Positions 11,849 through 35,122 of a stretch of DNA of 64,000 nt are shown here, piece after piece. The notes beneath the pieces are model-generated. The model was not told where the DNA came from. It saw nothing but the letters and a program-made list of their open reading frames with translations, and made no database searches. How positions within the stretch are numbered: position 1 is the stretch's first letter; each line of letters starts with the position of its first letter. The stretch covers positions 693 through 64,692 of IMG/VR virus record IMGVR_UViG_3300046167_000553. One strand, written 5' to 3'. This DNA comes from a virus (lineage: Duplodnaviria > Caudoviricetes). The position numbers were made by a program, and so were the translations under genes.

Positions 11849-12088
11849 ATGGATAAACAAAATCTGGAAGTACGTCGTACTCTAAACTCGTTAGAGCTAT
11901 GGCGCAAACGTGCCGTTGGCGAAAGCATCCGGTGCAGCAGTGTGATGCACGCGTTGTTTGATGTAAGGAAAGAGTTAGAAGAAGCAAAGAAAGCACTAAC
12001 AATGGGCGACGAGTCTTGGGCAGACGCGGCAGTTGATCGCGCACAGTCCCTTGTATCCGAAGCACTCACTAGGAGTAACCATGAATAA
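11849..12088 (+). CDS. Early hypothetical protein
   Basis: AGGAG RBS, ATG 11849, 79 aa helical. Confidence 0.7.
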   Translation: MDKQNLEVRRTLNSLELWRKRAVGESIRCSSVMHALFDVRKELEEAKKALTMGDESWADAAVDRAQSLVSEALTRSNHE

Positions 12089-13878: not shown

Positions 13879-13893
13879 TCTTTGGAGAAAACC

Positions 13894-14982
13894 ATGAATG
13901 CATTAAAAACTTACGCAGTAAATTTTGAAGAAGCTGTCGCAGCTATCGTGAACCTTGGCGATGAGGTCACCTATGTTTTTGAGGGTGATATGGGTATTGG
14001 CAAATCTGCCATGTTGAAAATGGTCGCGGCGCAACTGCCTGACCACGTACCCTGCTACTTCGATTGTAATACTAAGGACGTAGCCGATGCCTTTGTACCT
14101 GACATTTCCTCAGCGCAAACTGAGAATGTGGTACGTATGGTGCCTAATGCTGAGTTCGGTATTCAACACGGTAAACCTGTTATCCTGATGATCGACGAGG
14201 TGGGCAAGGCTGAGGGTGCTTTACTTAAAGCATTGTTTGCAACGTTCCACGAGCGCAGCATTGGCATGACCCCGTTACCTGAAGGCTCTATCGTCTTTGC
14301 AACAACTAACCTAGGTGCCGAGAATCTTGGTGACCTGATCCCTCCGCATGGCTTAGACCGTGTAACTAAAGTACGACTCCGAAAGCCGACCCCTACCGAA
14401 TGGATGGAGTGGGGCTTCAACAATGACATTCACCCTACCGTTCTGGCGTGGGTAAAAGACAATCCTCAGTTATTCAACTCCTTCGACGATGTATCATCCC
14501 CTGAAGATAATCACTACATCTACCATCCCAACGTTGTTCGCGACGGCTTCGTTACCCCTCGTGGTTTGGAGCGTGCGTCTAAGATCATTCACAAGATGGA
14601 CTTGATTGGTGAGACTATGACTCGTAGCTCATTGATCGGCACGCTAGGCTCTCATGGTGCCGGTGATCTTATGGCGTTTGTGACATTGTTTAATCAAATC
14701 CCCTCGCATGACGCAATACTATCTAGTCCGACTACAGCCATCGTACCCACCGACGCAGCAGCAGCGTGCATGGTGGTGGCGCGTGCGCTTGTCAAGCTGG
14801 AAGCTAAGGACGTATCTAAGTGGATGAACTACCTAGTACGTTTGGACAAAGGTGCACAAGTATTGTTTGGCTTGCAAGCTAAGGCCAAAACCTACAAGCG
14901 TCAGAAGGCTGTCGTTACTAATGCTGACTTCAACAAGTGGGCCTTGGACAACAGCTACATCTTCAGTGCTGACAAGCGATAG
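13894..14982 (+). CDS. AAA+ ATPase (MoxR/dynein-related-like)
   Basis: Walker A GDMGIGKS, Walker B LMIDE, sensor ATTN, TPR. Confidence 0.88.
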   Translation: MNALKTYAVNFEEAVAAIVNLGDEVTYVFEGDMGIGKSAMLKMVAAQLPDHVPCYFDCNTKDVADAFVPDISSAQTENVVRMVPNAEFGIQHGKPVILMIDEVGKAEGALLKALFATFHERSIGMTPLPEGSIVFATTNLGAENLGDLIPPHGLDRVTKVRLRKPTPTEWMEWGFNNDIHPTVLAWVKDNPQLFNSFDDVSSPEDNHYIYHPNVVRDGFVTPRGLERASKIIHKMDLIGETMTRSSLIGTLGSHGAGDLMAFVTLFNQIPSHDAILSSPTTAIVPTDAAAACMVVARALVKLEAKDVSKWMNYLVRLDKGAQVLFGLQAKAKTYKRQKAVVTNADFNKWALDNSYIFSADKR

Positions 14983-15001: not shown

Positions 15002-15005
15002 TTGT

Positions 15006-15035: not shown

Positions 15036-15052
15036 ATCAATGGAGAGTTAAC

Positions 15053-16717: not shown

Positions 16718-16789
16718 AGATTGTGTGTACGCCCTGTCGTTTTTGTTCGCGTTGATTTCTATTTACTCAATCGTTGCTGAGCTACCGTA

Positions 16790-17450: not shown

Positions 17451-17528
17451 AGGTGCACCTGAAGTAATCCTTTTTTATGGAATGATCGCTGGAATAATTC
17501 TTTGGGCGTTCTTTGAAGCGAGGGGTAA

Positions 17529-17989: not shown

Positions 17990-17997
17990 GGAGGTAT

Positions 17998-18249: not shown

Positions 18250-18266
18250 TTAATAGGAAACTAACC

Positions 18267-19349
18267 ATGACTTCATTTGAACAAATGCAAATTAATAGCC
18301 GACTGGTATCAAGCTTAGCGCTACCTTGTGAACACCAAAGCGAGGAATCTAAGCACATGTCATTGAAATCCGGTTGGGTCGTTGACTGTCTGCCGGTCAC
18401 CCAAGAACTTCACGACTACTGCAACGAACTTAGGAAGGCAATGCCCAGTCTACGTTTTGGTGTTGACAGATATGAGTTAGAAGTAGCGCAATCACGCAAC
18501 GGTGCACGGCCATTTTCAAAGTGCTTTGTCTACAGGGCAGATGACATTTATGTAATGGGCGCGTTGGGTTTTGGTACTCTAGGTTGTGCTGACCAAGACA
18601 AATATCTAATCAAGTCTCCGCATATTGAAAACAATATGTTCTGTGCATGGAACCATGCTCACCGATGTAAAGCTACAAAGAACTTAAGGCCAGCCGTAGG
18701 CAATGCGTTGACCTACCTGAGACGGCCAGCTGACAGCGAAGTACTTAACAGTACCATTAGCTCTTATGTGCAAGCAGTGTCTAATTTCCTAGAAAGTGAG
18801 CGTCATGGAATTGCTAAACAAATGCACGAGTTTTACTCAAAGGCTACTGGCATAATGTTTGGTAAGCACTGGGAGGCCAATGAATCTAGGCACGACTTCA
18901 TTGCTATGTTGGGTGCGTATCGTTCAAGGCCCGAAAATTGTAGGCCAGCGGCGGGGTCACCTTGGGTTGACGATCCGATGATTCGTCCTATTAACGAGCT
19001 AGCTAATAGTTATTACAAGCTGGTCGATACTAAAACTGATGTGTGTTTGGTTCACCCTGTTAAAAATGTTGATAATGAATTAATAGGCTACAACATCACG
19101 ACTCTGTTTGAACAGGAAGCGCGTAAGAATCTCAGCATGCATGAAAGCACGGATGTTACGGTTAAAAAGAATTTAGTGACAAGTGACAACGTTGACCAAG
19201 AAATAGCAACCAAAGTGGCTACTCTGTCTATGCTTGAAGAGCGCGATTACACGCCGTTGCTTGGCATGAAGCTGGACGGTGACATTTACTACGTAGAAAC
19301 TAATGTCGAAGCGTTACCTGATGACTACTATGAAAGGGAGGCTGGCTGA
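18267..19349 (+). CDS. Hypothetical protein
   Basis: 360 aa ORF with AGGA RBS. Confidence 0.8.
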   Translation: MTSFEQMQINSRLVSSLALPCEHQSEESKHMSLKSGWVVDCLPVTQELHDYCNELRKAMPSLRFGVDRYELEVAQSRNGARPFSKCFVYRADDIYVMGALGFGTLGCADQDKYLIKSPHIENNMFCAWNHAHRCKATKNLRPAVGNALTYLRRPADSEVLNSTISSYVQAVSNFLESERHGIAKQMHEFYSKATGIMFGKHWEANESRHDFIAMLGAYRSRPENCRPAAGSPWVDDPMIRPINELANSYYKLVDTKTDVCLVHPVKNVDNELIGYNITTLFEQEARKNLSMHESTDVTVKKNLVTSDNVDQEIATKVATLSMLEERDYTPLLGMKLDGDIYYVETNVEALPDDYYEREAG

Positions 19350-19657
19350 TGGCTATGACTCCAGAGGCAAAAGTTAAGCGCAAGGTAACTGACATTCTTA
19401 AGAAGTTAGAATGTTACTACTTTTATCCTGCTACCGGCGGCTATGGTAAGAGCGGTGTGCCTGATATTGTGGCTTGTTACCGAGGTTTGTTTATTGGTAT
19501 CGAATGTAAAGCAGGTAAAAACAAACCCACGATGCTGCAAGAGCGCAACTTGGATCAGATAAGAACGGCTGGGGGACTGGCCGTTGTTGTTAATGAAAAC
19601 AACATAGATGCATTGACTGCTCTGATTATTAATTTAAGGATTGATGTATGCGGGTGA
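19349..19657 (+). CDS. VRR-NUC domain nuclease
   Basis: TPEAKVK, GVPDI, IECKAG..KPT.LQ. Confidence 0.9.
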   Translation: MAMTPEAKVKRKVTDILKKLECYYFYPATGGYGKSGVPDIVACYRGLFIGIECKAGKNKPTMLQERNLDQIRTAGGLAVVVNENNIDALTALIINLRIDVCG

Positions 19658-21567: not shown

Positions 21568-22208
21568 AAGCTTTTGAGCAATGCCCTAGACAGTTTCACC
21601 AAGTCAAGGTTATAAAAGCTTATCCACAAGAAGAAACAGATGCCATGTTATATGGCACGGCCTACCACGAGGCGGCTGAGTTTTATGTTAGAGATAACAC
21701 GCCGCTCCCTCCGCAGTTTGAGTTCTCTCAAAAACTTCTTGATTCATTAAATGCAAAGACAGGTAAAAAGCTCTGCGAGTACGAGTTGGGTTTAACCGCT
21801 GATCTTGAGCCTTGCACATTCAAGGCAGACGATGTTTGGTTCAGAGGTATCGTTGACCTACTTATATTAGATGAGGAAAACGAGTTAGCGTGGGTCATTG
21901 ACTACAAGACGGGTCGGAACACAAAGTATGCCGATACGGGTCAGTTGGAGCTTATGGCACTTGCAACCTTCAAACACTTCCCTCAAATCAAAAAGGTAAG
22001 AGCAGGGCTGCTCTTTGTTGTAGCTGATAAGTTAATAAAAACAAGTTACGATAAAGAAGATAGCATTAAGTTGTGGCAAAAATGGTTGTCTGACTACAGT
22101 AGAATGGAAAAATCGTTTGACAATGACGTTTGGAACGCCCATCCTAGTGGCTTATGTCGTAGGCATTGCCCAGTAAAGGAATGCCCACACAACGGGGCTT
22201 ATGGTTAA
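21525..22208 (+). CDS. PD-(D/E)XK (Cas4/RecB-like) exonuclease
   Basis: WSFS....FEQCP, G.VDL, IDYKTG, QL, C..C.....C. Confidence 0.88.
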   Translation: MGTPRAAPWSFSKIKAFEQCPRQFHQVKVIKAYPQEETDAMLYGTAYHEAAEFYVRDNTPLPPQFEFSQKLLDSLNAKTGKKLCEYELGLTADLEPCTFKADDVWFRGIVDLLILDEENELAWVIDYKTGRNTKYADTGQLELMALATFKHFPQIKKVRAGLLFVVADKLIKTSYDKEDSIKLWQKWLSDYSRMEKSFDNDVWNAHPSGLCRRHCPVKECPHNGAYG

Positions 22209-22465
22209 TGGCTAGAGATTACAAAAAAGAGTACCAGACGCAAAAGAAACGGGGCGAAACCCCTGATCGGATGGAACGTCAGCGTGCACGCAGGGCCATT
22301 GATAAGCGCGATACAGGGACAGTTACAAAGAAGTCTCCCAAGCGTAAAGGTAAAGATGTAAGTCACAACAAAATGCTCAGCAAAGGCGGCAGCAATAAAG
22401 ACGGCTACCGCTTAGAAAGCCCTTCAAAGAATAGGGCAAGGAACGGCCAAAAGAAAAAGAAGTAA
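22208..22465 (+). CDS. Small basic HNH-like protein
   Basis: RDYKKEY, KDVSH....KGGSN, NR.RN. Confidence 0.7.
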   Translation: MARDYKKEYQTQKKRGETPDRMERQRARRAIDKRDTGTVTKKSPKRKGKDVSHNKMLSKGGSNKDGYRLESPSKNRARNGQKKKK

Positions 22466-22486
22466 AGTTATACATTATGTATAACT
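22466..22486. repeat. Palindrome copy 9, AGTTATAC-ATTAT-GTATAACT
   Basis: Directly abuts TAA 22463-22465; upstream of the helicase. Confidence 0.9.
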
Positions 22487-22543
22487 TTAGTATCTGAGTG
22501 ACGCACACGCGTTTCGCTCCGCTCTGTTATGCAAGGAGACTGC

Positions 22544-24079
22544 ATGGAGATTATAAAAGATAAAGCACTTAAGCTTAAAGTGAAGCATCCAAAACGAATT
22601 ACCGAGGTTATACCAAAGAGCAAACAAGTATCCGAACATGAAGTCCTAGTTAATTGGGGCGTACCGGAAACCAAGGTGCTTCGTAACCTAAACATAAACG
22701 CCCCTTCCCCTATCGAACGTCAGTATAATTGGACAGGTAAATACTCACCGTTTGATCATCAAGTTGTAACCTCTTCATTCTTCACCATGCACTCGCGATG
22801 TTTCTGTTTCAACGAAATGGGTACAGGTAAAACGGCTAGTGTGATATGGGCCTCTGACTTCCTTCTAAATCAAAAAGAAATTAACAGGGTCTTAATTGTA
22901 TGCCCGCTGTCCATCATGGATTCCGCTTGGCGTGCTGATCTTTTCACCTTTGCGATGCACAGACGAGTTGACATTGCACACGGCACACCCACCAAGCGCA
23001 AAGCAATCATAAACGGCGATGCCGAGTACGTAATCATAAACTATGAGGGTATTGAGATTGTTCTTGATGAGCTTCTTAACGGTGGCTTTGATCTTGTTGT
23101 AGTTGATGAAGCAAACGCTTACAAAAACGCTAAGTCTAAAAGATGGAAAGTTCTTAATCGTTTAATAGATAGGGATACCCGCCTATGGATGATGACCGGT
23201 ACACCGGCAGCGCAGTCCCCGCTTGATGCGTATGGGTTAGCAAAGCTAGTTAATCCCTCAGCAGTGCCGCAGTTCTTCGGATCATGGCGTGATCAAGTTA
23301 TGAACAAAGTCACTCAGTTTAAATACGTGCCTAAAGCCGACGCTACTGATACGGTGTTTAGAGTTTTGCAGCCAGCCATACGGTACACCAAAGAGGAATG
23401 TCTTGACCTGCCAGAAGTTACGATGGTCAAGCGTAAGGTAGACCTGACGCCACAGCAATCCAAGTACTACAAAGATATTAAGAATAAGATGGTGATAGCC
23501 GCTGATGGCGAAGAAGTTACCGCAGCCAACGCAGCCATTGTGATGAACAAGCTACTGCAAATTAGTTCCGGTGCTGTCTACAGTGACAACGGCGAGTCGC
23601 TGATGTTCGATATAAAGAACAGATACAAAGTTCTTAAAGAGGTGATAGACGAGTCAAGTCAAAAGGTTTTAATCTTTGCTCCGTTTAAGCATGTGATCAG
23701 TTCCCTTTCTGATAAGCTACGTGCAGATGGTTTGTCGTGCGATGTAATTTCCGGTGCCGTCAACGTGTCCAAGCGCACAGAAATATTTAAGTCGTTTCAG
23801 CAAAACCCCGACCCCCAAGTACTGATAATCCAACCGCAAGCTGCCGCGCACGGTGTTACGCTAACCGCAGCCAACACAGTTGTTTGGTGGGGGCCAACGT
23901 CGTCTCTAGATATTTTCTATCAAGCTAACGCTAGGATTCATAGAGCAGGGCAGAAACACAAGTGTACAGTGGTACAGCTAATTGGATCAGCAGTTGAAGA
24001 TCATGTGTACTCGTTATTAGATCAGAGAATTGATGTTCACTCAAAAGTTGTCGATCTTTATAAACAATTACTTGACTAG
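22544..24079 (+). CDS. SNF2-like superfamily 2 helicase
   Basis: EMGTGKT, VVDEA, MTGTP, HGVTLT, QANARIHRAGQ; AAGGAG RBS before ATG 22544. Confidence 0.92.
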   Translation: MEIIKDKALKLKVKHPKRITEVIPKSKQVSEHEVLVNWGVPETKVLRNLNINAPSPIERQYNWTGKYSPFDHQVVTSSFFTMHSRCFCFNEMGTGKTASVIWASDFLLNQKEINRVLIVCPLSIMDSAWRADLFTFAMHRRVDIAHGTPTKRKAIINGDAEYVIINYEGIEIVLDELLNGGFDLVVVDEANAYKNAKSKRWKVLNRLIDRDTRLWMMTGTPAAQSPLDAYGLAKLVNPSAVPQFFGSWRDQVMNKVTQFKYVPKADATDTVFRVLQPAIRYTKEECLDLPEVTMVKRKVDLTPQQSKYYKDIKNKMVIAADGEEVTAANAAIVMNKLLQISSGAVYSDNGESLMFDIKNRYKVLKEVIDESSQKVLIFAPFKHVISSLSDKLRADGLSCDVISGAVNVSKRTEIFKSFQQNPDPQVLIIQPQAAAHGVTLTAANTVVWWGPTSSLDIFYQANARIHRAGQKHKCTVVQLIGSAVEDHVYSLLDQRIDVHSKVVDLYKQLLD

Positions 24080-24100
24080 CTCACAGCCCTCACCTATATT
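24072..24100 (+). promoter_or_regulatory. Sigma70-type promoter for the replication genes
   Basis: TTGACT-17 bp-TATATT. Confidence 0.7.
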
Positions 24101-24142
24101 AACCAACCCCGAGTAATTTTCGGTGCGCGAAAGGAGAGTAAG

Positions 24143-24535
24143 ATGGATGTTTCTGTCGAGAAGTTAACTGATATATACCTTAAAATAAAAGGTAAAAGAG
24201 ATATTTTATCTCGCGATTTCAAGCAGGAAGATGAACGCTTGAAGACACAGCAAGAACGGATCAAACGGGCCTTGCTGGATTACTGCAAAGAAAACGATAT
24301 TGAGTCTGTTCGCACAGAAGCAGGTACTTTTTATCGGTCTATAAAAACTAAGTACTGGACAAATGACTGGGCATCTATGCATCAGTTCATACTCCAGCAT
24401 GAAGTTCCTGAGTTCTTAACGAAGTCTTTGAATCAAGCTAACGTTAAGCAGTTCATGGATGAAAACCCCACCCTTGTACCCGCTGGACTCAATGTTGATT
24501 CCGAGTATGTGGTATCAGTGCGAAAAGCTAAATAG
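24143..24535 (+). CDS. Conserved replication-module protein
   Basis: 130 aa, coiled coil, SVRT..GT.YR and YW..DW motifs. Confidence 0.8.
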   Translation: MDVSVEKLTDIYLKIKGKRDILSRDFKQEDERLKTQQERIKRALLDYCKENDIESVRTEAGTFYRSIKTKYWTNDWASMHQFILQHEVPEFLTKSLNQANVKQFMDENPTLVPAGLNVDSEYVVSVRKAK

Positions 24536-24544
24536 GAGGCAGAA

Positions 24545-24808
24545 ATGTCTGATAAAGAACAACCGGCCACAAGCCCTTTTGAAACTACAGAGGGCGTTGC
24601 ACAGTATTTTAACGTGTCTGTCTGGACAGTTAGAGACTGGGTTAAACGTGGCATCATACCCTCATCAGCTTACATAAAGGTAGCTAAGACTACTCGCTTT
24701 AAGCTGGATCAAGTGGAAGCTGCATTGGTATCAGTAATGTCTCAAGACGAAACTGAAACCGAAGCAGACGACGAGCCTGTAACTGTAGAACCCATTTACC
24801 TTAACTAA
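24545..24808 (+). CDS. Helix-turn-helix DNA-binding protein (excisionase/MerR-like)
   Basis: T.EGVAQYFNVS.WTVRDWVKRG.IP...RF. Confidence 0.85.
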   Translation: MSDKEQPATSPFETTEGVAQYFNVSVWTVRDWVKRGIIPSSAYIKVAKTTRFKLDQVEAALVSVMSQDETETEADDEPVTVEPIYLN

Positions 24809-24819
24809 GAGAGACTATT

Positions 24820-25713
24820 ATGAGTACGAACATGACAACTTGGAAAGACGGTTTAGGTGCAAACCTAAAAGATTTCGAGGAAGCAAGCAGTAATCTTTCA
24901 GATGCAAGCGGTGGCGGTAAGTCACGGCGCATCAGTGTGAACGGCAGTCGGTTTAGGAAGATTGTAGGTGGTGAGCAGGTTGAGGTCAGCAATTCAAGCT
25001 CAATGAATATCATCATTGTGAATGCCGCTCCGGTATCACGTACCTACTACGAGGGAACGTACGATCCAGAAAACCCCGCTCCTCCTGCCTGTTGGTCACA
25101 GGACGCAAACGGTGGCGTACCTGCTAAAGATGTAACAGATGAAGGCCGACAGTCCTCACGTTGCGGTGACTGCCCTCAGAACGTCAAGGGATCAGGTCAA
25201 GGCCAGTCTCGTGCGTGTCGTTTTAACCAGCGACTAGCGGTAGCCATAGAAGGTGATTTAGATAATATCTATCAGCTTCAACTTGCAGCGACTAGCATCT
25301 TTGGTCAGGCTATTAATGGCAACATGCCGATGGGTGCTTATGCTAAGTACTTAAAGGAACACAGTGCGCCAGCTTCAGCCATCGTTACGCAGATGTACTT
25401 CGATGAGTCGGCCTCTGTTCCTAAGTTATTCTTCAAACCCGTCCGTCCTTTGGAAGAGGCTGAGCTTGACCAAATAAGAGCAAAGCTTAAGTCTGAAGAT
25501 ACGATGCGTGCCATTGAGCTTACCGTGGCTCAGACCGATGGGGTAGAGAAGAAGCCTCAGCTTGAAGCACCTGTAAAAAAGGCACCTGTAAAAGAAGCTC
25601 CGAAAGAAGAAGTGATCGAAGAACCCAAGAAAGCAGTTAAGTCAAGCAATGCTGTTGATAAAGAAAGTTTAGGTTCAGCACTAGACGAAGTGATTGATGA
25701 ATGGGACGATTGA
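24820..25713 (+). CDS. ssDNA-binding/annealing-like replication protein
   Basis: RTYY.G.YD, P.CWS, C..CPQN.KGSG...RAC; acidic tail DEWDD. Confidence 0.65.
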   Translation: MSTNMTTWKDGLGANLKDFEEASSNLSDASGGGKSRRISVNGSRFRKIVGGEQVEVSNSSSMNIIIVNAAPVSRTYYEGTYDPENPAPPACWSQDANGGVPAKDVTDEGRQSSRCGDCPQNVKGSGQGQSRACRFNQRLAVAIEGDLDNIYQLQLAATSIFGQAINGNMPMGAYAKYLKEHSAPASAIVTQMYFDESASVPKLFFKPVRPLEEAELDQIRAKLKSEDTMRAIELTVAQTDGVEKKPQLEAPVKKAPVKEAPKEEVIEEPKKAVKSSNAVDKESLGSALDEVIDEWDD

Positions 25714-25722
25714 TCTGACCCC

Positions 25723-25751
25723 CGCCCCTGCCATGTAGGTGGGGGCATTTT
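25723..25751 (+). terminator. Terminator/attenuator-like hairpin just upstream of the primase RBS
   Basis: GCCCCTGCC-ATGTA-GGTGGGGGC followed by ATTTTT. Confidence 0.55.
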
Positions 25752-25763
25752 TGGAGACATACC

Positions 25764-28607
25764 ATGAACGCTTTAGATTTCTTTAAGGCGGTGCTGGGGG
25801 ACTCTGGTTGGTATTGCGCGTTTAGTAAAGACCCGATAGTGCAAAAGTTCTATCAGACCATAGAAGAACTTGACCACGTAACTAAACAGTTTAGCCAGAA
25901 TGAAAAAGATTCCTACTTCGCACTAGCTACATTTAAGAACGGAGATTTAAGAGAAAGCAGCAATGCCTTGCAGATTAAATCTTTCTTTGTAGACATTGAT
26001 GCAGACCACGGAGCAATACGCTATGACAACAAGCAGGAAGCAGTAAAAGAGTTAAGAGGATTCTGTAAAGCACTCAGTCTACCTAAGCCGGTTATTGTAG
26101 ATTCAGGCGGCGGTATTCACGCTTATTGGATTCTTGACGAACCGGTGTCGATGGATGATTGGAAGCCGGTGGCTCTCAGTTTTCGGCAAGCTTGTATAGA
26201 TCACGGATTACGTATTGACCCCAAAGTTACAGGCGACGGCGCTAGGGTGTTACGTACACCTAATACGTATAACACACGGTCGGATACGTATAGCAAGTTT
26301 TTAAGTGACACTGTTAACTACGTACCCTTTTCCCTGTTTGCTGATAAGTTTGATACAGCACCCGCGCCGGTACTGGTATCAGATAACATTGACCAAGCAG
26401 ACAGCGCGTTACTTGATTTACTGCAAAGTAACGTACAAGGAAGCTTCGCCAAAATAGAAGAAAAGAATGAAGTCGGTCAAGGCTGCGCTCAGCTTGACTA
26501 CATACTTAAGCATCAAGACGAAGTTAGCGAACCTTTATGGAGAGCAGGTTTATCTATCGCTAAGTTTTGTGAAGAGTATGACGAAGTAATGCACCGTATG
26601 TCAGAAAATCACCCTGAGTACGATCCTTCAGAAACCGAATACAAGTTATCAAGAATTAAAGGCCCGTACAGGTGTAGTTCTTTTGAAGAAGAGCGCCCTG
26701 AAGGTTGCGAAGATTGTCCCCACAAAGGGCAGATAAATACCCCTTGGTCGCTGGGCAGGAAGATAGCTGAGGCTGAAGGCGAAGAAGTGGTTTCTGATCT
26801 GTTTGATGATCAAGTAACTTATACAATCCCTGAATACCCTAAGCCTTACTTTAGAGGGTTGAACGGCGGCGTGTATATTCGTTCGCAAACTCTGGCTGAT
26901 GATGAGCCTGAAGAACGATTAGTTTATCATAACGACATATATGTAACCCGTAGGATACGTGACCCTGAGCTTGGTGAATCTATAATTGTCAATTTCATCT
27001 TACCACAAGACGGCAAGAAGGAGTTTGTACTACCTCTGACAGCAGCAACGTCACGAGAAGAGTTTAGAAAAGCTATGTCACATCACGGCGTAGTAATGAT
27101 GAAGATGGAAAACCTTATGGCCTATATACAAAAGTGGGTGGAGGAATTGCAATTGAAAAGCAAAGCTGATGAGTCTAGACGACAATTTGGTTGGACTAAG
27201 GGCTTAGACGGTTTTGTAGTCGGCGCTGAAGAAATCACTAAAGACGAGATATTGATAAATCACCCTTCGCCCCCTACAGCTAGGTTCTTTCCAGCGTTTG
27301 AGCCTAAAGGTACTTACGAGAAGTGGCAGGAAATGATCGAAACGTACAATCGACCCGATCTTGATGTGCACCAATTCTGTTTAGCCTTCTGCTTGGGATC
27401 ACCCCTGTTTGAGTTTATACCGAAGATTCAAGGCGGTGGTGTCCATTTGTTCAGTGGTGACAGCGGTTTTGGTAAAACGTCTGTTATGGACGCAGGGAAC
27501 TCTATTTGGGGTGGCCCCAGCTTGCGGATTAAGGGTAAGGATACAGGTAACTTCACAATGAACAGGGCGGAGATATGGAAGAACCTGCCTTTGCTGATAG
27601 ATGAAGTTGGAGATGTGCCGCCTCACGAACTAAGTGCACTTGCTATGGTTATGACCGATGGTGAGCAGAAAGGTCGAATGTCAAGCGGGGCTAACCAAGA
27701 ACGTATCAGGGGCGAACCTTGGTCACTGGGCGTGATGACCAACGGTAATAACAGCTTCATTGAACGTGTATCTACCTTTAAGAATGTACCTCGCGCTGAA
27801 GCACAAAGGATTCTAGAGTGGGAGTGTGACGGTGTTAACTTCAACCAAAACGCCGAAGGGGGAGAAGAATCGGACAGGTTCAATGACCTGCTTGAGAAAA
27901 ACTACGGGTGGGCAGGGCCGATCTTTATTAGATACATATTAAATAACAAGGAAGAAGTACAGAAACTTGTTACAAAGACCAGTCAGGTGCTTAACAAAAA
28001 GCTCAGGCTGGCAGTGCAGAATAGGGTGTGGAAAGCCAATCTAACCGTTGCAATTGCTGCAAATATCATCGCTAACCGTTTAGGGATTTGGTCGTTCGAT
28101 ACCAATTTAATGCTTACGACTAGCGCCAAAATCGTCAAGTATAATCGTGAGAAAGTAGTGACCATTACGCGTAACGCAACAGAAACTATAAATGAATATG
28201 TGGCAGAGAATATACGTAACATATATATCATTAACAGCAAAAAGGATTTACGTAAGCAAGGCATTCATAACAACGCATTGGACAGCTTGGTAAAGAGTGT
28301 TGATCCTTACAAGGTCGTGGGTCGGCTAGAGCCTGATACCGAAATGCTGTACTTGGCAGTCAGCCCTCTGCGTAAATGGTGTTTAGATCAAAGAGTGAAT
28401 TACTCTGAGTTAGACCGTGATCTATGCCGAAACCATAACGCCCATAGAAAGAACAAACGATTACTGGCAGGGCATAATCTTGACACAGGCCCAGTCAAAG
28501 CTTTATGGGTTAACGTTAAGGATATTCTAGACTTGCAGGACGAAGATGCATTACGTGAACTAGAAAAAATAGCCAGCCTAGCAGAAAATGAAGACGATCA
28601 ATCCTGA
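25764..28607 (+). CDS. Primase-helicase (RepB/AEP-like N-terminus, DUF927 and P-loop)
   Basis: FVDID, DSGGGIHAYW, RVLRTP; C...C..C; GDSGFGKT and LIDE. Confidence 0.88.
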   Translation: MNALDFFKAVLGDSGWYCAFSKDPIVQKFYQTIEELDHVTKQFSQNEKDSYFALATFKNGDLRESSNALQIKSFFVDIDADHGAIRYDNKQEAVKELRGFCKALSLPKPVIVDSGGGIHAYWILDEPVSMDDWKPVALSFRQACIDHGLRIDPKVTGDGARVLRTPNTYNTRSDTYSKFLSDTVNYVPFSLFADKFDTAPAPVLVSDNIDQADSALLDLLQSNVQGSFAKIEEKNEVGQGCAQLDYILKHQDEVSEPLWRAGLSIAKFCEEYDEVMHRMSENHPEYDPSETEYKLSRIKGPYRCSSFEEERPEGCEDCPHKGQINTPWSLGRKIAEAEGEEVVSDLFDDQVTYTIPEYPKPYFRGLNGGVYIRSQTLADDEPEERLVYHNDIYVTRRIRDPELGESIIVNFILPQDGKKEFVLPLTAATSREEFRKAMSHHGVVMMKMENLMAYIQKWVEELQLKSKADESRRQFGWTKGLDGFVVGAEEITKDEILINHPSPPTARFFPAFEPKGTYEKWQEMIETYNRPDLDVHQFCLAFCLGSPLFEFIPKIQGGGVHLFSGDSGFGKTSVMDAGNSIWGGPSLRIKGKDTGNFTMNRAEIWKNLPLLIDEVGDVPPHELSALAMVMTDGEQKGRMSSGANQERIRGEPWSLGVMTNGNNSFIERVSTFKNVPRAEAQRILEWECDGVNFNQNAEGGEESDRFNDLLEKNYGWAGPIFIRYILNNKEEVQKLVTKTSQVLNKKLRLAVQNRVWKANLTVAIAANIIANRLGIWSFDTNLMLTTSAKIVKYNREKVVTITRNATETINEYVAENIRNIYIINSKKDLRKQGIHNNALDSLVKSVDPYKVVGRLEPDTEMLYLAVSPLRKWCLDQRVNYSELDRDLCRNHNAHRKNKRLLAGHNLDTGPVKALWVNVKDILDLQDEDALRELEKIASLAENEDDQS

Positions 28608-28791
28608 TGGTATTCAGGTAAACGTTTACTGGGATGCCGCTGTTCGCGGCAGTTCTTTCTTTATACCTTGTATAAACGTAAGCAAAGCAAAGCTACAAGT
28701 TAAGCGGGTGGCTAAAGAAAAAGAGTTACAAATAAAGAGTAAGACTGTAATAGAGCATGGTATTATTGGGTTGCGCGTTTGGATTCAATAA
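28588..28791 (+). CDS. Small hypothetical protein
   Basis: GSSFFIPC and GLRVW motifs, last gene of the replication arm. Confidence 0.75.
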   Translation: MKTINPDGIQVNVYWDAAVRGSSFFIPCINVSKAKLQVKRVAKEKELQIKSKTVIEHGIIGLRVWIQ

Positions 28792-28800
28792 GGCTATAAT
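28771..28800 (+). promoter_or_regulatory. Sigma70-like promoter for a small RNA
   Basis: TTGCGC-18 bp-TATAAT with no ORF downstream. Confidence 0.6.
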
Positions 28801-28806
28801 CGGATA

Positions 28807-28875
28807 CCGCTCTTGTCATGGGGAGGGGTTATTCATGGTAGTCTCCTTTTAGCCCCCCTAACAGGGGGCTTTTTT
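28807..28875 (+). ncRNA. Candidate trans-acting anti-RBS small RNA (~70 nt)
   Basis: Bounded by a promoter and a terminator; contains UUCAUGGUAGUCUCCU, complementary to phage translation-initiation regions. Confidence 0.55.
28851..28875 (+). terminator. Rho-independent terminator at the convergence of the two arms
   Basis: GCCCCC-CTAACA-GGGGGC followed by T6. Confidence 0.88.
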
Positions 28876-31800
28876 ATATCTCCAGTGCGTCCTTAGCCAT
28901 CTGCGCTTGATCTTTGTCCTTGTACCTTATCCCCATAACTCTCTCTTCGACGGCCTTCATCCTGCTTCTAAATGATCGGTCAAAGGTTCCGTCTTTACCA
29001 ATATCAATTCTAAACTTAGAGTTTGCAGGTAGCGAGCGATTAAATTCAATAGCCTCCTTAATCTCATCTGAGTATCCAACCCCGTCACCCATTCGGTATG
29101 CAAGCCAAGCTCTCTTCAGAATCATTGATCGGTCTTGTGCACGCTCAGTCTCTATGCGTTTCTGATTAGATGTAAACCGCTGAGACTCTGTAACCGATGT
29201 AGGCGCAAAGCCTAAGAATTGCCCAGCCAGTGACAATCCTCCGAAGTCATTAGTAATCATATCCCCGCTTGTGGTTTTCGCACCAGACGATCCATACCTT
29301 ATAGCTTTTAAAGGGTTACTAATCGCTGGAGGCAAAAAGCTTTCAGCAGCTCTTGCATAATCGTTTCTCTCCAACGCGCTAAATGCTCTTGGGACTCTAC
29401 TCACTACTCCCCATACAGGGCCAAGGGCCAAGGTTGCGTACAGTTCAGAAGGAGTCTGATCGTAGTTACGGTTGCTACGATAGAGCATATCAGTCAGCGA
29501 GATTCTGTCGGCAACGTTTACTCCCGCAAAGGTGTTTACAAGACCAGTCGATAAGCCAACGCCGATTTTCTTACGTAGCATGTTATCAAAATCGTCCTCG
29601 TCATCGTCAGTCAATATCATATCCCACAGAAAAGCAAATATGCCTATCATTGGAATACCTCTAACTCCCGCAAAAGCAACCGACGCAAGATAAACGTTAA
29701 ATATATGGTTCCGCGCTGCCTCTCTAGCTTCAGGGGTTTCTCCCCCCAGTGCGGCCTTAAACATTTTAAGCTGTAGGTACATCATGCGCGTACCATAGCT
29801 CTTATACATAAAGGCCATTGACATTAGCGGTTTTTGTCCGAAGCGCGTGTTAGACAAGGTGGACATTGCACCGTTCACCATCTGACTATCAGTGATGGCT
29901 TCTCGTGCGGCCTTTTCGTAATCTACCTTATCCCCTGCCTTTCTTTGATCCTCCAGCCTCATCCGATAGCTGGCTAAAATCGTAGCTTCTCTTCGCACTC
30001 TTTCACTGCCTTGCATCAGTGAACCCATTAAGTTGTTAAAAAAAGAAAGTATCGGTCTGCTAGTTTCACCCGTCATTTCACCACTGTCTTGTGTCCATGC
30101 CGTTTGGTGAATCTGACCGTAGTTACGCATGGCATCGACAAGCGGCCTTAGCTCTCTTGAGTTTCTATCGTTACCGCTCAAATCCATATTAGCTAAAGAA
30201 TACCAAGCTCTTTTTTCGCGAACATCCCTTTTTTCAAGACCGCTTTCTTCAATCTCTTTATCGCTTAGCCCTTTAGTGGTGTAGCTTTCCACCGTCGTTT
30301 TCATGGGTGTACTCATAACATCTTTGACGGCTTTTAAAAGTATCTTGTTGGTATTTACAATACCTCTGTCAAACTTAGCATTTAGATGCGGAGCAATGAC
30401 CATCGGCAAAGAAAAGGTATCAATGAGCGCCGAGGATGCGTTTACTCCTAACGTATAGCCATAGGCCACTGTTTTAGCTATGTTCGCTGCGTCTGTAACA
30501 GTTCCCGTAATAGGATTCCGTGCCAGCGCTATACGATTTTTTAATTCTTCACCTATAATCAGCTTTCTTTCGTTTTCTGGGCTGTTGTTTTCGGCTGCAA
30601 TGATCTTCATTTCAGCATCCAACTCAGCCTCAGTTCTAGAAAGCTCATCCCTCATCTTCATGCTATTGATCTTTCTTGCAAGATCAGTCAAAGAAGAGCC
30701 ATAGACATTAACAACGTCATCGTTATATCCAGCTTTGCCTGTACGCTTCTTTAACGCATTCAAGACAGTTCGCTGCGGAGCAGCTTCAATAGCTGTCCTT
30801 ATCAGTTCTTCTTTGATCACTTCAATCTCAGGGGTATTACCCAACCTATTGATAAGGGATAAGCTCTTACCTACAAAGCTGTAAGGTATTTTGTCCCCTG
30901 TGAGATAGTCTGTTAGCTTTGTCGGTGTTCTGATCAGAGGAATTTGCTCTGGTTCTAACAGGTTTTCCTTCAAGAATGCGACACGCGAATCTCGTTCGGT
31001 TGCATTGGGGAACATCTCAAAAGCATCCCTAGCTTTACCTTCTGCATCAGTAAATGTGTAAGACAGAAGATATTTACCTCTGCGCTGCAAGGGGAAGTAA
31101 CCTTCAAGTGCGTTGTTCTTAAAGTGTTCGTACAGTTCGCTGTATATCTTAGTTCCAGTTTCGGGATCAATAGCCCCAAGTGCTACCTCTAACTGACTAA
31201 GCAAATCCTTGTACATTCGGTCATAGTTAGACCTGACCTTTTTGTATTCAAGCTGCCCTCCGTTGTCCTTCAGGCTATTCCATATCGGCTCTAGCTTTTC
31301 GTATGCCGCCCTCTGCTCACCTCTGTACTCATTCTTAGCTTTTCTGAAATCAATCTGAGCCAAAGTGCCGTCCAGTAAAATCTGCTTTAGGTCGGTTAAA
31401 GCTTCGGTGTTTTTCTGTCCCCACTCTTGCAAGTCCTTAGCTGCCGTTACTGCAATTGCTTGCTGATCGCCATACAAACGACCTTCGTACTCACTGATTG
31501 TGTTTTGTATGGGAATAGCTGACTTAAATGCATCTTTAGCGGTATCGACAACTAGTGATAGCTGCAAAGAACCTAACATAGAAGGGAGCGCTTTATTGTT
31601 AAGTCTTTTTATCGCTGCCATCCCTTCTTCTTTTGTTGTTGTTACATCTTGATTTATTATCTTAAGCACTCGCTCATTGTCGGTGATCAAGTTATAGACC
31701 TTGGAAGTAGCAGCAGTAGCACTAGGAGCAAGCAACTGTTCCATTGTATCGTTAAGATCACCACGCGTTGCTATGTTTCCGAATAGTCGTTTTATCGCAT

Positions 31801-34800
31801 CTGTCAAGCGTTGGAAAATACTTTTTCTTTGGCTATCTCTCGGGAACATAAAGCTGAGTTCCCTACGAAAATTAGAATTACCAAAGTATTCAGCGACAAA
31901 TTCATGTATAGTTGATGTTGCGTAACTAGCAGGAAGTTCAGCCTTGGCTTGTTTGTATAGCTTTGTTATTTTTTTAGTAGTTGGGTTTGCTTTACTCTTA
32001 AGTGTTTTATGAGTTAAAGCATGAGCGATTTCATGTAAGACGCCGTGATTAGTTATCGGCTCGTCTTCAAGCAGATATACTGTGTTGGTGCTAACCCGAT
32101 ATTGACCCTTAATTAAAACGCCGTCTTTTTTACCCAAGTCGTCAACAAACTCAATCTTAAGGTCATCCACTAATCCAGAAAACAACTTAGCAATACGTGA
32201 AAGTGCGCCAGTTTCCCGGTTAGACATTATTGTTAACGCTTCTTGCACATCACCACTTCTAAGTGCAGTGGCAGCAGTGCTATCCATAGGCGCGGCTAGT
32301 TCTAACAAACCCTCATGCGCTAGCATATTGAAATCAGACTCAGACAGACCGAATGCTGCTAGGTCACTTTCGGCATCACTCAATGCGCCGGTTTCTTCAG
32401 CGGTAAGGTCTACGGCATCGTCAATTATCTTCTGCTGTTTCTTGGCGGCTTGGCGCTCTCTTCGGTTTTCTTGAGCTTCTTCAGACTCACTCCTACGCTG
32501 CCTTTCTTCAACCTGCCTCTGCTCCATCGCTTTTCTAGCAGCAACGCGATCATCAAAAGATTGGCGTTGTTCAGCTTGACCCTTGTTGGCCTCTACCAGT
32601 ACATCAACTTCTTTCTGCGCTTTAGCAAGGGCTTTCTTTTGAGACTCAGTGCCGCTCTTTTCTATAAACTTAACAGCAAGTTTGGCGCGTTGTTTTGACG
32701 TACCCTCTAGTTCTTTACTGACTCTTGGGCTACCTTCTTCTTTGATTCTGTTAGCTGTTTCGTTGCTGGTGTACCCAAGCTCAGACGCATCAAACGCCAG
32801 TCGCCTAGCCGCAACATCAGGCTCAAACTTACTATAGTAAGTCTTGATGACGTTCACATCTTTAACAGAACCTTTCTTGCTTGCTTGTACCTGCTTAACG
32901 TCCTTGATCTTCTTGTCGGCTACAACAGCAGCGACCTTATCTTCAGGATCGACAGGTTTGGCAACTTTTACTTTAGGCTTGGGGGCTAGTGGAGCAGACT
33001 TAGTTCTTTTTCTGCTTCTAGTATCTGGTACGTCACTCCGAGTACTTGCCACGCTAGGCCGTCCAGTTTGTCCAGCGGCGGGGGCAGTTCGCTCTGTAGT
33101 AGGTATAGCTCGTCTTCGTTGCTGTGTGACGCTTCCGCTAGTACCTTTAGCGCCATCTCCATCTGTTCCTGTGTCAAGTTTAACAGGGCTTTCGACATTA
33201 GCGGTTTCCGTTACTTTTTTTTTACTGACAGGAGCTTTAGGTGCAGCAGATTTAGCTGCCTTTGGAGCTTTCTTTTTTGCAGCTATTTGCGCTGCGGCCT
33301 TAACCGCTGCGTCCCGAGCTACTTTTCTATTAGGTACTGCATTTCCGCTCTTATCGACGCCGAACAGTCCTACATTAGAACCGAACTCACTCTTATCGTC
33401 AAAGAACTTTGTAGTTAACAACTTAGTTCTGTTGTTACCGCTCTTGTTCGCAAAGGCTTGTAGTTCTCTTTTTACGAAAGCCTTTTCTATTGGCTTGTTT
33501 AAGTCCTTGCCCTTAACTCTGGCTCGCACGCGCGCATACTTTGGAACGCTAAGCGCATTTAACATCTCATCGTTTACTACAACCGGCGTTGCTGCTGGTG
33601 TAGCTTCGGATTTGGCTTGAGGTACAACAGGAGCTTTAGCTTTTGCGCCCCTAAACTTATCTTGAACGCGTCCCAAAGGCTGACCTTTTTGACTAAGCAT
33701 TCGCCCTTGTACTGGGGCTGGGGTCTGATCGGTAGTAACAGGCAACTCGCCTTGAACCGCTTGTGTGGGCAGCTTTGTCTGTGGCTCTGCTTTCGGTGCA
33801 GTCACGGCATCTAAACGTTCGCTAGGAAATAAATCACCCTGTCCATCTGAGTCTTTAAGTAGTTCTGATAAAAGGGCAATTTGCTCTGTAGGCTCTTTTA
33901 CGTTTTCTATCTGAGCGAGGGCTGCGTCTAGAGTAGAATCATCAACAGGACGCTGAGGCATGTTCATTTGAGCGGGTCTGTCTTTTCTAGGTTCGTTCAA
34001 CTCCAAAGAGTCAAGTCTGTCTAGTAGACTATCAAGATCGTCTATCTCAGCAGGGCGCTGAGGCATGTTCATTTGTGAAGGTCGGGCTGATCTAGGCTCG
34101 TTTAACTCTAAAGAGTCAAGTCTGTCTAGTAGGCTATCAAGATCGTCTATCTCAACAGGGCGCTGAGGCATGTTCATTTGTGAAGGTCTAGCTCGCCCTT
34201 CGGTTAAAGGGGGCGGGGTCATATCGCTCATAGGATCAAAAGCTGATGGCTGCAAAGGAGCGTCATCCATTGGAGCGTCAGACAACTCCGATTCTATATC
34301 AGGAGCGTCTTCAGACGACGAGACTCTTCCTCTTGAGGGAATCAGTACACTTACGATAGCACCTACAGCCGCGCCAATACCGCCCGACTCTAAAACGCCC
34401 TCCATCAGCGATTCTAATTCAGGATTGTAAATTTTACGCTCGGTTACGTTTTGCAGGTACTCGTAAACAGCTTCTTGTGCACCTTCGTAAGAACCGCCTC
34501 GGATAGCTTTGACTGCTTTACCTTTAATGCCGTTAGGTAATGCCTGTGTAAGTTTAAGTATCCTATTAATAGGAAGGGCTTGCGTAGCACCAATAAGGCT
34601 ACCACTCATAGCAGCTTGATTTCGTTGTTCCTCTGTAGCGCCAGCGGCTCTAGCTCTCTCCGATGCATCACCTGTACCGGCGGCGGCACCCAAACCTGCT
34701 GCTCCCGCAAAACCCGCTACGGGGCCACCTACCATACCGGCAGCTAAATACGGGCCAATTGAACCTAGACCTTCAACAACTTTAGTTAAAGTATCATCTT

Positions 34801-35122
34801 CAAGTCCCGGCTCTCGCTCTGGTCTTAGAGTTTCTGCTGAACTCCTAATGAAATCTCTGGCCTTGTCTTCATATTCTTCTGGCAGCAGAGTCGCTAGACC
34901 CAAAGCACCAAGCTCACCAGTGTTTACTGCCCCGCGACCTAACGCGGGAAAAAAGTCACCAGCCCGTTCGCCAAGCGTAACCTCTTCAGCATCTCTGATT
35001 CTTGCTCTTTCTTTTATGTCTTTTTGACGAACTAATGAAGCAAGCTCTCTGCGACCAATACCCGATGGCCCTTCAACTTCAACAACTTGTCCATTCTGCT
35101 TAGTGACTTCATAGATTGGCAT
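28874..35122 (-). CDS. Very large internal virion / DNA-ejection protein
   Basis: 2082 aa; Gly/Ala-rich hydrophobic N-terminus, low-complexity linker, HEIAH zincin motif; last gene of the virion arm. Confidence 0.8.
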   Translation of the reverse strand: MPIYEVTKQNGQVVEVEGPSGIGRRELASLVRQKDIKERARIRDAEEVTLGERAGDFFPALGRGAVNTGELGALGLATLLPEEYEDKARDFIRSSAETLRPEREPGLEDDTLTKVVEGLGSIGPYLAAGMVGGPVAGFAGAAGLGAAAGTGDASERARAAGATEEQRNQAAMSGSLIGATQALPINRILKLTQALPNGIKGKAVKAIRGGSYEGAQEAVYEYLQNVTERKIYNPELESLMEGVLESGGIGAAVGAIVSVLIPSRGRVSSSEDAPDIESELSDAPMDDAPLQPSAFDPMSDMTPPPLTEGRARPSQMNMPQRPVEIDDLDSLLDRLDSLELNEPRSARPSQMNMPQRPAEIDDLDSLLDRLDSLELNEPRKDRPAQMNMPQRPVDDSTLDAALAQIENVKEPTEQIALLSELLKDSDGQGDLFPSERLDAVTAPKAEPQTKLPTQAVQGELPVTTDQTPAPVQGRMLSQKGQPLGRVQDKFRGAKAKAPVVPQAKSEATPAATPVVVNDEMLNALSVPKYARVRARVKGKDLNKPIEKAFVKRELQAFANKSGNNRTKLLTTKFFDDKSEFGSNVGLFGVDKSGNAVPNRKVARDAAVKAAAQIAAKKKAPKAAKSAAPKAPVSKKKVTETANVESPVKLDTGTDGDGAKGTSGSVTQQRRRAIPTTERTAPAAGQTGRPSVASTRSDVPDTRSRKRTKSAPLAPKPKVKVAKPVDPEDKVAAVVADKKIKDVKQVQASKKGSVKDVNVIKTYYSKFEPDVAARRLAFDASELGYTSNETANRIKEEGSPRVSKELEGTSKQRAKLAVKFIEKSGTESQKKALAKAQKEVDVLVEANKGQAEQRQSFDDRVAARKAMEQRQVEERQRRSESEEAQENRRERQAAKKQQKIIDDAVDLTAEETGALSDAESDLAAFGLSESDFNMLAHEGLLELAAPMDSTAATALRSGDVQEALTIMSNRETGALSRIAKLFSGLVDDLKIEFVDDLGKKDGVLIKGQYRVSTNTVYLLEDEPITNHGVLHEIAHALTHKTLKSKANPTTKKITKLYKQAKAELPASYATSTIHEFVAEYFGNSNFRRELSFMFPRDSQRKSIFQRLTDAIKRLFGNIATRGDLNDTMEQLLAPSATAATSKVYNLITDNERVLKIINQDVTTTKEEGMAAIKRLNNKALPSMLGSLQLSLVVDTAKDAFKSAIPIQNTISEYEGRLYGDQQAIAVTAAKDLQEWGQKNTEALTDLKQILLDGTLAQIDFRKAKNEYRGEQRAAYEKLEPIWNSLKDNGGQLEYKKVRSNYDRMYKDLLSQLEVALGAIDPETGTKIYSELYEHFKNNALEGYFPLQRRGKYLLSYTFTDAEGKARDAFEMFPNATERDSRVAFLKENLLEPEQIPLIRTPTKLTDYLTGDKIPYSFVGKSLSLINRLGNTPEIEVIKEELIRTAIEAAPQRTVLNALKKRTGKAGYNDDVVNVYGSSLTDLARKINSMKMRDELSRTEAELDAEMKIIAAENNSPENERKLIIGEELKNRIALARNPITGTVTDAANIAKTVAYGYTLGVNASSALIDTFSLPMVIAPHLNAKFDRGIVNTNKILLKAVKDVMSTPMKTTVESYTTKGLSDKEIEESGLEKRDVREKRAWYSLANMDLSGNDRNSRELRPLVDAMRNYGQIHQTAWTQDSGEMTGETSRPILSFFNNLMGSLMQGSERVRREATILASYRMRLEDQRKAGDKVDYEKAAREAITDSQMVNGAMSTLSNTRFGQKPLMSMAFMYKSYGTRMMYLQLKMFKAALGGETPEAREAARNHIFNVYLASVAFAGVRGIPMIGIFAFLWDMILTDDDEDDFDNMLRKKIGVGLSTGLVNTFAGVNVADRISLTDMLYRSNRNYDQTPSELYATLALGPVWGVVSRVPRAFSALERNDYARAAESFLPPAISNPLKAIRYGSSGAKTTSGDMITNDFGGLSLAGQFLGFAPTSVTESQRFTSNQKRIETERAQDRSMILKRAWLAYRMGDGVGYSDEIKEAIEFNRSLPANSKFRIDIGKDGTFDRSFRSRMKAVEERVMGIRYKDKDQAQMAKDALEI
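33945..34197 (-). repeat. Intragenic 114-bp tandem repeats (RPSQMNMPQRP.EIDDLDSLLDRLDSLELNEPR)
   Basis: Two full copies and one partial copy in the translation. Confidence 0.85.

Follow-up and report, generated by a model that had tools for sequence, protein, structure and literature searches.

A putative small RNA gene beside the primase operon of an uncultured marine phage, with complementarity to early-gene start sites

The stretch of DNA analysed here, termed the window, comprises 64,000 nucleotides (nt) of a tailed phage (Duplodnaviria; Caudoviricetes; IMG/VR record IMGVR_UViG_3300046167_000553, positions 693 to 64,692) and makes up nearly all of a 64.7-kb virus record. Positions 28771–28876 very probably hold a plus-strand gene for a small RNA (sRNA), judging from promoter, hairpin and terminator features that recur at the same junction in related phages. 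The single-stranded part of the predicted RNA is complementary to translation start sites, and in family-wide comparisons it pairs preferentially with early-gene start sites of the genome that carries it. We regard it as an evenly balanced proposal that the RNA acts on early genes of the phage itself, at their start sites. An sRNA family directed against such sites, without an Rfam match at threshold, is the best explanation of the data, held with about as much belief as doubt.

Results

Architecture of the RNA gene

The RNA locus occupies a convergent junction between replication genes on the plus strand and late genes on the minus strand. The primase gene (25764–28607, plus strand) is followed by an open reading frame (ORF) of 67 amino acids (aa) at 28588–28791 that overlaps its end. 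An 82-nt spacer comes next, and a 2082-aa ORF on the minus strand has its stop codon at 28874–28876. The parts of the gene are as follows (SD, Shine-Dalgarno).

28588..28791, plus strand: conserved 67-aa ORF preceding the RNA gene; its final codons, G-L-R-V-W, carry the -35 element
28771..28776, plus strand: -35-like hexamer TTGCGC, read directly; three of six consensus matches
28795..28800, plus strand: -10 hexamer TATAAT, separated from the -35 by an 18-nt spacer and lying 3 nt past the stop of the 67-aa ORF
28806..28829, plus strand: 5' stem-loop (SL1) at the predicted transcription start; fold prediction
28830..28850, plus strand: single-stranded seed region with anti-AUG CAU at 28834–28836 and anti-SD GUCUCCUUUU at 28841–28850; includes 28832–28846
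28851..28876, plus strand: intrinsic terminator, stem-loop 28851–28870 and T-run (TTTTTT) to 28876; seven pairs, six of them G-C

An earlier note, made from the sequence alone, had described a promoter (TTGCGC-18-TATAAT) and a terminator enclosing about 70 nt devoid of ORFs, and this arrangement is present as far as conserved ORFs are concerned. The only plus-strand ORFs that touch the RNA stretch encode 31 aa (28757–28852) and 27 aa (28813–28896), and neither their frame nor their end is retained in the 95%-identical relative L002. The promoter-like elements conform to the pattern of sigma-70 promoters (-10 TAnnnT and -35 TTGnnn at 16–18 nt, in conserved position), with a spacing of 18 nt in the window. 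Likewise, the G+C-rich stem-loop and U-run typical of intrinsic terminators are found in the window and in all 58 retained loci (see below). The terminator is common to the RNA gene and the primase/67-aa operon, and it is one-directional, as the hairpin is followed by AAAAGGAG on the minus strand. Between the two hairpins, the single-stranded stretch reads UUCAUGGUAGUCUCCUUUU, i.e. an anti-AUG followed by an anti-SD. The same note had envisaged a hairpin presenting CAU in its loop. This holds for the first CAU, which sits in the loop of SL1, whereas the anti-AUG CAU at 28834–28836 is part of the single-stranded linker. A scan of the window for tRNA and tmRNA genes found none.

Independently of this locus, TATAAT is scarce in the window as a whole (22 occurrences vs 37.5 expected; 100 of 100 shuffles had at least 22), which fits selection against stray -10 elements.

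Conservation of the junction in relatives

Searching IMG/VR with a profile of the 67-aa ORF identified homologues in 434 of 595 candidate stretches, from which the best 80 were kept; 77 loci with enough downstream sequence gave 63 distinct junctions for analysis. The layout is shared by 58 of these: a conserved 64–67-aa ORF, a -10 element, a 5' hairpin, a single-stranded CUCCUU-type tract and, 25–79 nt downstream, a strong terminator. Later counts refer to these 58 loci, with L045, L061, L068, L083 and L085 excluded. The arrangement is kept across lineages whose adjacent 64–67-aa proteins share 34–50% identity. A TAnnnT word no more than 12 nt from the stop codon occurs in 60 of the 63 distinct junctions compared with 13.7% of random windows treated alike. 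Three positions are nearly invariant among the 63 junctions (T1 in 61, A2 in 63, T6 in 61), and variable middle positions give rise to TATAAT, TATACT, TAAACT, TACACT, TAGAAT and others. Located 17–18 nt further 5' and within the G-L-R-V-W codons, the -35 word of the relatives reads TTGCGA or TTGCGT (TTGCGn) or else TTTACG.

Predicted RNA lengths range from 50 to 109 nt (median 74), and the first paired base of SL1 falls within nt 1–3 of the position “-10 end + 7” in 47 loci. Close to the terminator, within 22 nt, a CTCC, CCTC or TCCC word is found in 43 of the 58 loci, as opposed to 3 of 18 other terminators from six genomes; CTCCT or TCCTT is present anywhere in the RNA body in 52. The closest relative, L002, has a primase that is 95% identical and a junction that is 96% identical, with the 15-nt segment at 28832–28846 unchanged; the whole seed region (28830–28850) is identical in L002 and L124. 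Just two substitutions separate the RNA bodies of the window and L002, and both fit the plus-strand SL1 (G.G to G-C and C-G to U.G). Moreover, the terminator stems of the two differ by paired changes, and the G-L-R-V-W codon stretch differs by a single, synonymous change (CGC to CGT). In L126, at 70% identity, anti-SD and anti-AUG are retained with a different spacer.

Strand of the element

Comparison of both strands shows that the RNA body folds better on the plus strand, by a mean of -1.5 kcal/mol (Wilcoxon p 3e-5, indicative only as the loci are related). Within one clade, the arms of SL1 read GTCGG/CCGAC, GTTGG/CCAAC (four sequences), GTTGG/CCGAC, ATCGGC/GCCGAT and GTCGGC/GCTGAC, so that two positions have changed on both sides and two show G-U intermediates. 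Such intermediates would be mismatches on the other strand. Taken with the compensatory changes and the lower folding energy, they point to a plus-strand RNA. RNAalifold, applied to a MAFFT alignment of 14 RNAs, recovered only the terminator, as loop lengths differ; the 5' arms of SL1 were out of register in this alignment, and the arm pairs given above were compared by eye.

Pairing with early start sites across the family

Ten larger records (G000–G008 and G010) were compared; G009 was dropped, with only one plus-strand gene called on its contig. Genes and start sites were called by a simple heuristic rule, and duplex energies were calculated between each RNA and the region from -30 to +15 of every start site. 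Early (plus-strand) sites gave stronger pairing than late (minus-strand) sites in G000 (p 5.5e-4), G002 (p 0.0037) and G005 (p 0.02), and a 16S-like anti-SD control gave no early/late difference in G000. When CTCC was left in place and only the other seed positions were shuffled, the observed difference was reached by none of 60 shuffles in G000 and G002 and by 2 of 60 in G001 and G003.

Assigning the RNAs to their own genomes gave early-site energies below those of nearly all alternative assignments. Hand-picked seeds preferred their own genome with p 0.007 (six genomes) or 0.017 without the close pair, a rule-based 25-nt seed with p 0.023 and 0.038, and the whole RNA body, across ten genomes from nine lineages, with p 0.0003 and 0.00036. 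No comparable own-genome preference was observed for late sites (p 0.31–0.55 and 0.10–0.12). The lineage-matched complementarity can be illustrated by individual pairs. The RNA of G010 carries UUAGUUCCU, and AGGAACUAA is present at three plus-strand sites of this genome and nowhere on the plus strand of the nine other genomes. In G008, GCUAGCUCCUUA in the RNA corresponds to the start site UAAGGAGCUAGC-AUG, and in G004 GUUAGCUCCU corresponds to two AGGAGCUAACaAUG sites. It is these family-level tests, rather than the single genome, that lend significance to the complementarity with ribosome-binding sites (RBS).

A single conserved target was considered and rejected, as no group stands out among 33 orthologue groups. 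The best mean ranks were those of the helicase (0.30), the ATPase (0.32, eight lineages) and a 130-aa protein (0.33).

Pairing within the window and the role of the primase

Four initiation regions of the window are candidate targets.

25753..25768, plus strand: initiation region of the primase (DUF927), GGAGACATACCATGAA; candidate in this phage only; duplex -23.7 kcal/mol
13884..13898, plus strand: initiation region of a 362-aa ATPase gene, GGAGAAAACCATGAA
12731..12745, plus strand: initiation region of a 300-aa ORF, GGAGAAAACCATGAC
12071..12088, plus strand: initiation region of a 72-aa ORF, AGGAGTAACCATGAATAA; 11 contiguous nt

The reverse complement of 28832–28846, GGAGACTACCATGAA, resembles a start site itself, and the segment pairs with the primase site over 6 + 9 bp with one bulged A, which reproduces the 15-bp pairing described in the earlier note. 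Matches at the ORFs starting at 12081, 12741 and 13894 were recovered as well: ACCATGAATAA at 12078–12088 is an exact 11-nt complement of the RNA segment, and GGAGAAAACCATGA(C/A) is found at 12731 and 13884. The orthologue of the 72-aa ORF in G001 has GGAGACTTACCATGAAT, which is the best match of that genome. The excess over chance of these single-genome matches is modest. Allowing three mismatches, the 15-mer has four matches in the window vs 1.27 expected, a number reached by 6 of 100 shuffles, and ACCATGAA has four vs 1.84 expected (8 of 100 shuffles). In 24% of cases, an antisense copy of one of the window's real start sites pairs equally well with a different start site. Contiguous complementary 8-mers are at chance level genome-wide (21 vs about 36 for shuffled seeds, G000). 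Given these weak statistics, the segment is to be seen as generically anti-start-site, and the primase match alone proves little.

Compensatory changes between the RNA and the primase RBS, which had been suggested as a check, did not materialise: the primase site of L002 is altered to GGAGACACACATGATC, with no change in its RNA segment. In most relatives the primase start site, located via the conserved N-terminus, lacks an SD (e.g. aaataaataaATG), and the primase orthologue group has a mean rank of 0.50 among all start sites. Pairing of the RNA with own and foreign primase sites differs weakly (-11.3 vs -10.3 kcal/mol; p 0.016 by permutation, related pairs being counted). On account of the changed site in L002, the relatives without SD and the mean rank, the primase was rejected as a conserved family target, and it is quite improbable that it represents the main target. 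What stands of the earlier proposal of a trans-acting sRNA on early genes is the discrete unit and the own-genome preference at early sites; the primase as key target does not.

Some further features of these start sites were recorded. A start-site cassette of nearly the same sequence is common to early genes: atctTTGGAGAAAACCATGA twice (12721–12745, 13874–13898); TTTGGAGAAAACACTGTATG; TTTGGAGACATACCATGA (17240–17258, 25750–25766). Three cassette-bearing early genes begin with Met-Asn, and a TATAAT precedes the SD by 4 nt at 13874. Directly 5' of the primase SD, a G+C-rich hairpin with TTTTT at 25718–25752, found in L002 too with paired changes, may be a terminator or attenuator between a 297-aa ORF and the primase.

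Discussion

Evidence against the assignment and alternative explanations

A number of observations weigh against an RNA gene that acts on early start sites. Regarding the gene, the predicted fold of the window RNA is unexceptional on its own (minimum free energy -25.1 kcal/mol, z -1.37), a consensus promoter scan omits TTGCGC-18-TATAAT since its -35 matches in three of six positions, and five of the 63 junctions are without the element. Metatranscriptome X20 holds five low-depth contigs on 25600–29100, including a 156-nt contig at 28799–28954 (depth 3.8); this sole RNA-library contig over the RNA gene extends past the terminator, is unstranded and may stem from DNA. As these are contigs from one RNA library, their ends (e.g. 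28799) do not mark transcript ends and uncovered stretches are uninformative. The 26 differences that set strain variants (X4) apart over 3.5 kb leave 28686–28892 and the primase site untouched, at a divergence too low to inform. Regarding the targets, duplex energies ignore accessibility and the gene calls are heuristic. The early/late rank test was non-significant in G001 (p 0.13), G003 (0.11) and G004 (0.30), as was the CTCC-fixed shuffle in G004 (0.12) and G005 (0.28). Effect sizes of the own-genome preference are small (0.1–2.5 kcal/mol), and AGGAGCTAA is present also in G003, G005, G007 and G010. Antisense copies of real start sites were at least as good as the best duplex per genome in fractions of 0.24, 0.09, 0.24, 0.19, 0.54 and 0.48. 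The best duplex in the own genome was not superior to the best in foreign genomes, and none of the 33 ranked orthologue groups passes multiple testing.

Four alternative explanations have to be weighed. If the RNA is real, its main targets may be host mRNAs, in which case a generic anti-SD RNA would damp host translation or metabolism, much as the CU-rich toxic double-hairpin RNAs of Burkholderia may do, and the matches to early phage genes would be secondary. We consider this unlikely. Within the RNA body, conservation is highest for CUCCUU (CTCCT/TCCTT in 52/58 loci), no phage orthologue is consistently targeted, and the best, sub-threshold Rfam match is RF02278 (23.5 bits, E 0.005). According to PMC5688073, RNAs of this family have CU-rich unpaired stretches that complement RBS, and overexpression of ncS27 slows growth. 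Still, the flanks beyond CTCC are tuned to the phage's own early sites, which a purely host-directed RNA would not predict, and the 67-aa ORF has no relative in 185,579 species genomes (0/143 stretches). Alternatively, the stretch could be the 3' untranslated end of the primase/67-aa mRNA with silent promoter-like hexamers, an idea we rate as distinctly unlikely. The same applies to its extension, in which the CU-rich tract acts in cis, by stabilising the 3' end or by folding back onto start sites of the same mRNA. The terminator shared with the upstream operon, the weak -35 (3/6) missed by the promoter scan and an RNA library whose contigs mark no transcript start speak for it. The fixed distance of TAnnnT to both stop codon and 5' hairpin, across lineages of 34–50% identity, is nevertheless hard to explain unless it functions as a promoter.

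A function of the minus strand is very unlikely. Here, an SD and ATG (GGAGACTACCATG, ATG 28838–28836) would load ribosomes on late read-through transcripts for translation of a mini-ORF, MNNPSP. This initiation region is of textbook quality and is retained in the window clade (WIN, L002, L126); the terminator is inactive for the minus strand, so that late transcripts may read through, and the RNA-library contig does span it. A genuine minus-strand ORF starting at 28836 had been named in the earlier note as one finding that would overturn the sRNA. Across the 58 loci, however, an ATG follows the SD-like core at 4–10 nt in 16 and any start codon in 21, and the resulting ORFs of 1–82 codons have no peptide in common. 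Even within the window clade the product varies, from MNNPSP to MNNRSP in L002 and a 16-codon ORF in L126, and G-U pairs and the T-run mark the plus strand. Finally, an ordinary terminator region might by chance contain promoter-like and RBS-like words. Word statistics are indeed weak in the single window, yet conservation in 58/63 junctions, with controls, makes such a coincidence hardly credible.

Proposed mode of action

Returning to the RNA directed against early start sites, the architecture, conservation, strand and lineage-matched complementarity reported above can be read directly from the sequences, and the following model builds on them; transcription, binding and repression are its predictions. 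Host sigma-70 RNA polymerase would transcribe an RNA of about 70 nt from the promoter straddling the stop codon of the 67-aa ORF, and transcription would stop at the terminator common to this RNA and the primase operon. The transcript would consist of three parts: a hairpin at the 5' end, a single-stranded pyrimidine-rich stretch, and the terminator hairpin with its U tail. The single-stranded stretch would pair with the initiation regions of several of the phage's own early and replication mRNAs, candidates being those of the ORFs that start at 12081, 12741, 13894 and 25764. The last of these, the primase, is a possible target in the window lineage and not a family target. Pairing would block binding of the 30S subunit, and translation of early genes would fall as the RNA accumulates.

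T4 RegA is a protein repressor that occupies the initiation regions of many early mRNAs and so shuts them off. The logic proposed here is alike, with RNA rather than protein as the proposed effector. In a more speculative extension, which we put forward tentatively, a widespread marine tailed-phage lineage uses a constitutive sRNA in the role of RegA, with a seed that co-evolves with a lineage-specific SD-spacer-AUG address. Rising numbers of genome copies, and with them of the RNA, would then switch off the whole early regulon as a dosage-coupled early-to-late timer, and the 67-aa protein could join as a partner.

Relation to known RNAs

Type I 3'UTR-derived sRNAs (UTR, untranslated region) such as DapZ and MicL have their own promoter inside the preceding coding sequence or at its end and share the terminator with the mRNA. 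DapZ and MicL are chromosomal, depend on Hfq and act on host mRNAs. By this definition the element is similar, with its -35 in the G-L-R-V-W codons, its -10 located 3 nt past the stop codon and one terminator.

Searching the whole window against Rfam gave no family at gathering score. The best hit was RF02278 at 28840–28877 on the plus strand (23.5 vs 50 bits, E 0.0053), a family of Burkholderia toxic or double-hairpin RNAs (ncS03, ncS05, ncS27, ncS62) of which the element, scoring below gathering, is not a member. RNAs of RF02278 are described in PMC5688073 and PMC4603805 as 57–92 nt long with two hairpins, the second being the terminator, and most of their predicted interactions cover start regions. 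Two hairpins and an unpaired CU-rich stretch complementary to the RBS are found in the phage RNA too. Unlike RF02278, which is chromosomal with 3–5 copies per Burkholderia genome, it is phage-borne, tied to the 67-aa ORF and equipped with an anti-AUG in some lineages. It also differs in being single-copy, in that one locus per phage genome was analysed, located via an exact match to the junction RNA, with no search for further copies.

Among phage RNAs, sar of P22 (68/69 nt) and c4 of P1/P7 (77 nt) are, according to PMC12197685, short RNAs that pair around an mRNA RBS and block translation; in temperate phages, each of them regulates the antirepressor gene ant, and sar overlaps its target in cis. 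The element resembles them in its complementarity to the RBS region of phage mRNAs. It is distinct in that neither integrase nor ant was found and in that it has several candidate targets, 3–17 kb away. The OOP RNA of lambda (77 nt) has its own promoter and terminator beside replication genes and is cis-antisense to the 3' end of cII (PMC12197685). Small size, phage origin, and a promoter and terminator of their own near replication genes are common to both RNAs, whereas no annotated partner gene overlaps the element, which has an anti-SD seed. Phage sRNAs tabulated in this 2025 review are mostly from temperate phages and prophages (Table 1 of PMC12197685). A search of a collection of papers found no description of the RNA; supplementary tables were outside this search, and Table S1 of PMC12197685, with 38 phage sRNAs of no described function, could list similar ones. 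We class the element as a putative new RNA family, a variant among RBS-occluding sRNAs outside the named systems.

The phage and its genome

Runs from 12 studies, most of them labelled seawater or marine metagenome, contain a 9-kb stretch of the window phage in whole or in part. The plus-strand block (about 11380–28791) encodes an ATPase, a DNA polymerase, an exonuclease, a helicase and the 947-aa DUF927 primase, and minus-strand genes at 87–10621 and 28874–63993 include those for terminase, portal, head, tail fibres and lysis. The DNA polymerase is 46–48% identical to siphovirus homologues from Alteromonas, Pseudomonas and Burkholderia phages. No nucleotide-level relative of the window was found among GenBank phages, and tblastn of the 67-aa ORF against them gave no match. 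The nearest cultured relative by primase, Pseudomonas phage Rollin (25% identity), has an equivalent junction that lacks an intergenic gap.

Families of phage RNA polymerase, integrase or antirepressor were not matched among 58 ORFs at E ≤ 1e-5. The absence of an integrase and of an obvious repressor had been remarked upon earlier; the former agrees with this result, and the latter is doubtful in view of a set of 19-bp palindromes and a small regulator-like ORF, which suggest protein-based control as well. The palindrome, AAAGTTATACA-WWW-TGTATAACTTT, lies between genes of the early block, mostly immediately 5' of a start site, with copies at 11170, 11495, 12308, 13645, 14982, 17089 and 22467, a variant at 9902 and half sites at 10716 and 20153 (span 9902–22485). 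TGTATAAC occurs 17 times vs 2.5 expected (0 of 100 shuffles). The palindrome looks like an operator or early promoter, and other lineages seem to have a different one, CTAACA-n-TGTTAG, in similar places. Around its first copy, in the divergent region between the blocks, iteron-like direct repeats ATAACAATACAAT and CGATAACAA at 11125–11260 may represent the replication origin. The 2082-aa protein (28874–35122, minus strand), the last of the late block, contains about 2.5 tandem copies of the peptide RPSQMNMPQRP.EIDDLDSLLDRLDSLELNEP as well as long Ala/Lys/Pro stretches of low complexity; its sole match is an unnamed PHROG.

The adjacent 64–67-aa protein

The basic protein, in all cases encoded 5' of the RNA gene, has the invariant residues W15, G21, F25, P27, C28, G61, R63 and W65, and the confident AlphaFold2 model of the 67-aa form (predicted local distance difference test score, pLDDT, 89.3) shows a beta-beta-beta-alpha-beta-beta order. 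It has no match in Pfam or PHROG, and a profile search against PDB sequences returned nothing below E 1. Comparison of the model with the PDB gave no convincing fold match either (Foldseek best E 0.19; VIA-align best Z 5.5). The protein could be a nucleic-acid-binding partner of the RNA, and one dedicated to it. Within its ORF, a terminator-like hairpin and T-rich run at 28635–28660 (TGCCGCTGTTCGCGGCA GTTCTTTCTT) is kept in L002; the T-run encodes a conserved S-F-F-I motif.

Implications

The junction defines, by sequence, a family of putative RNA genes in an uncultured marine phage lineage, with at least 434 related stretches in IMG/VR. Covariation between the sRNA and the start sites of its regulon could help to predict targets in uncultured viruses. 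If the proposed mechanism holds, the element would provide a simple example of RNA-based temporal control in a phage without a detected integrase.

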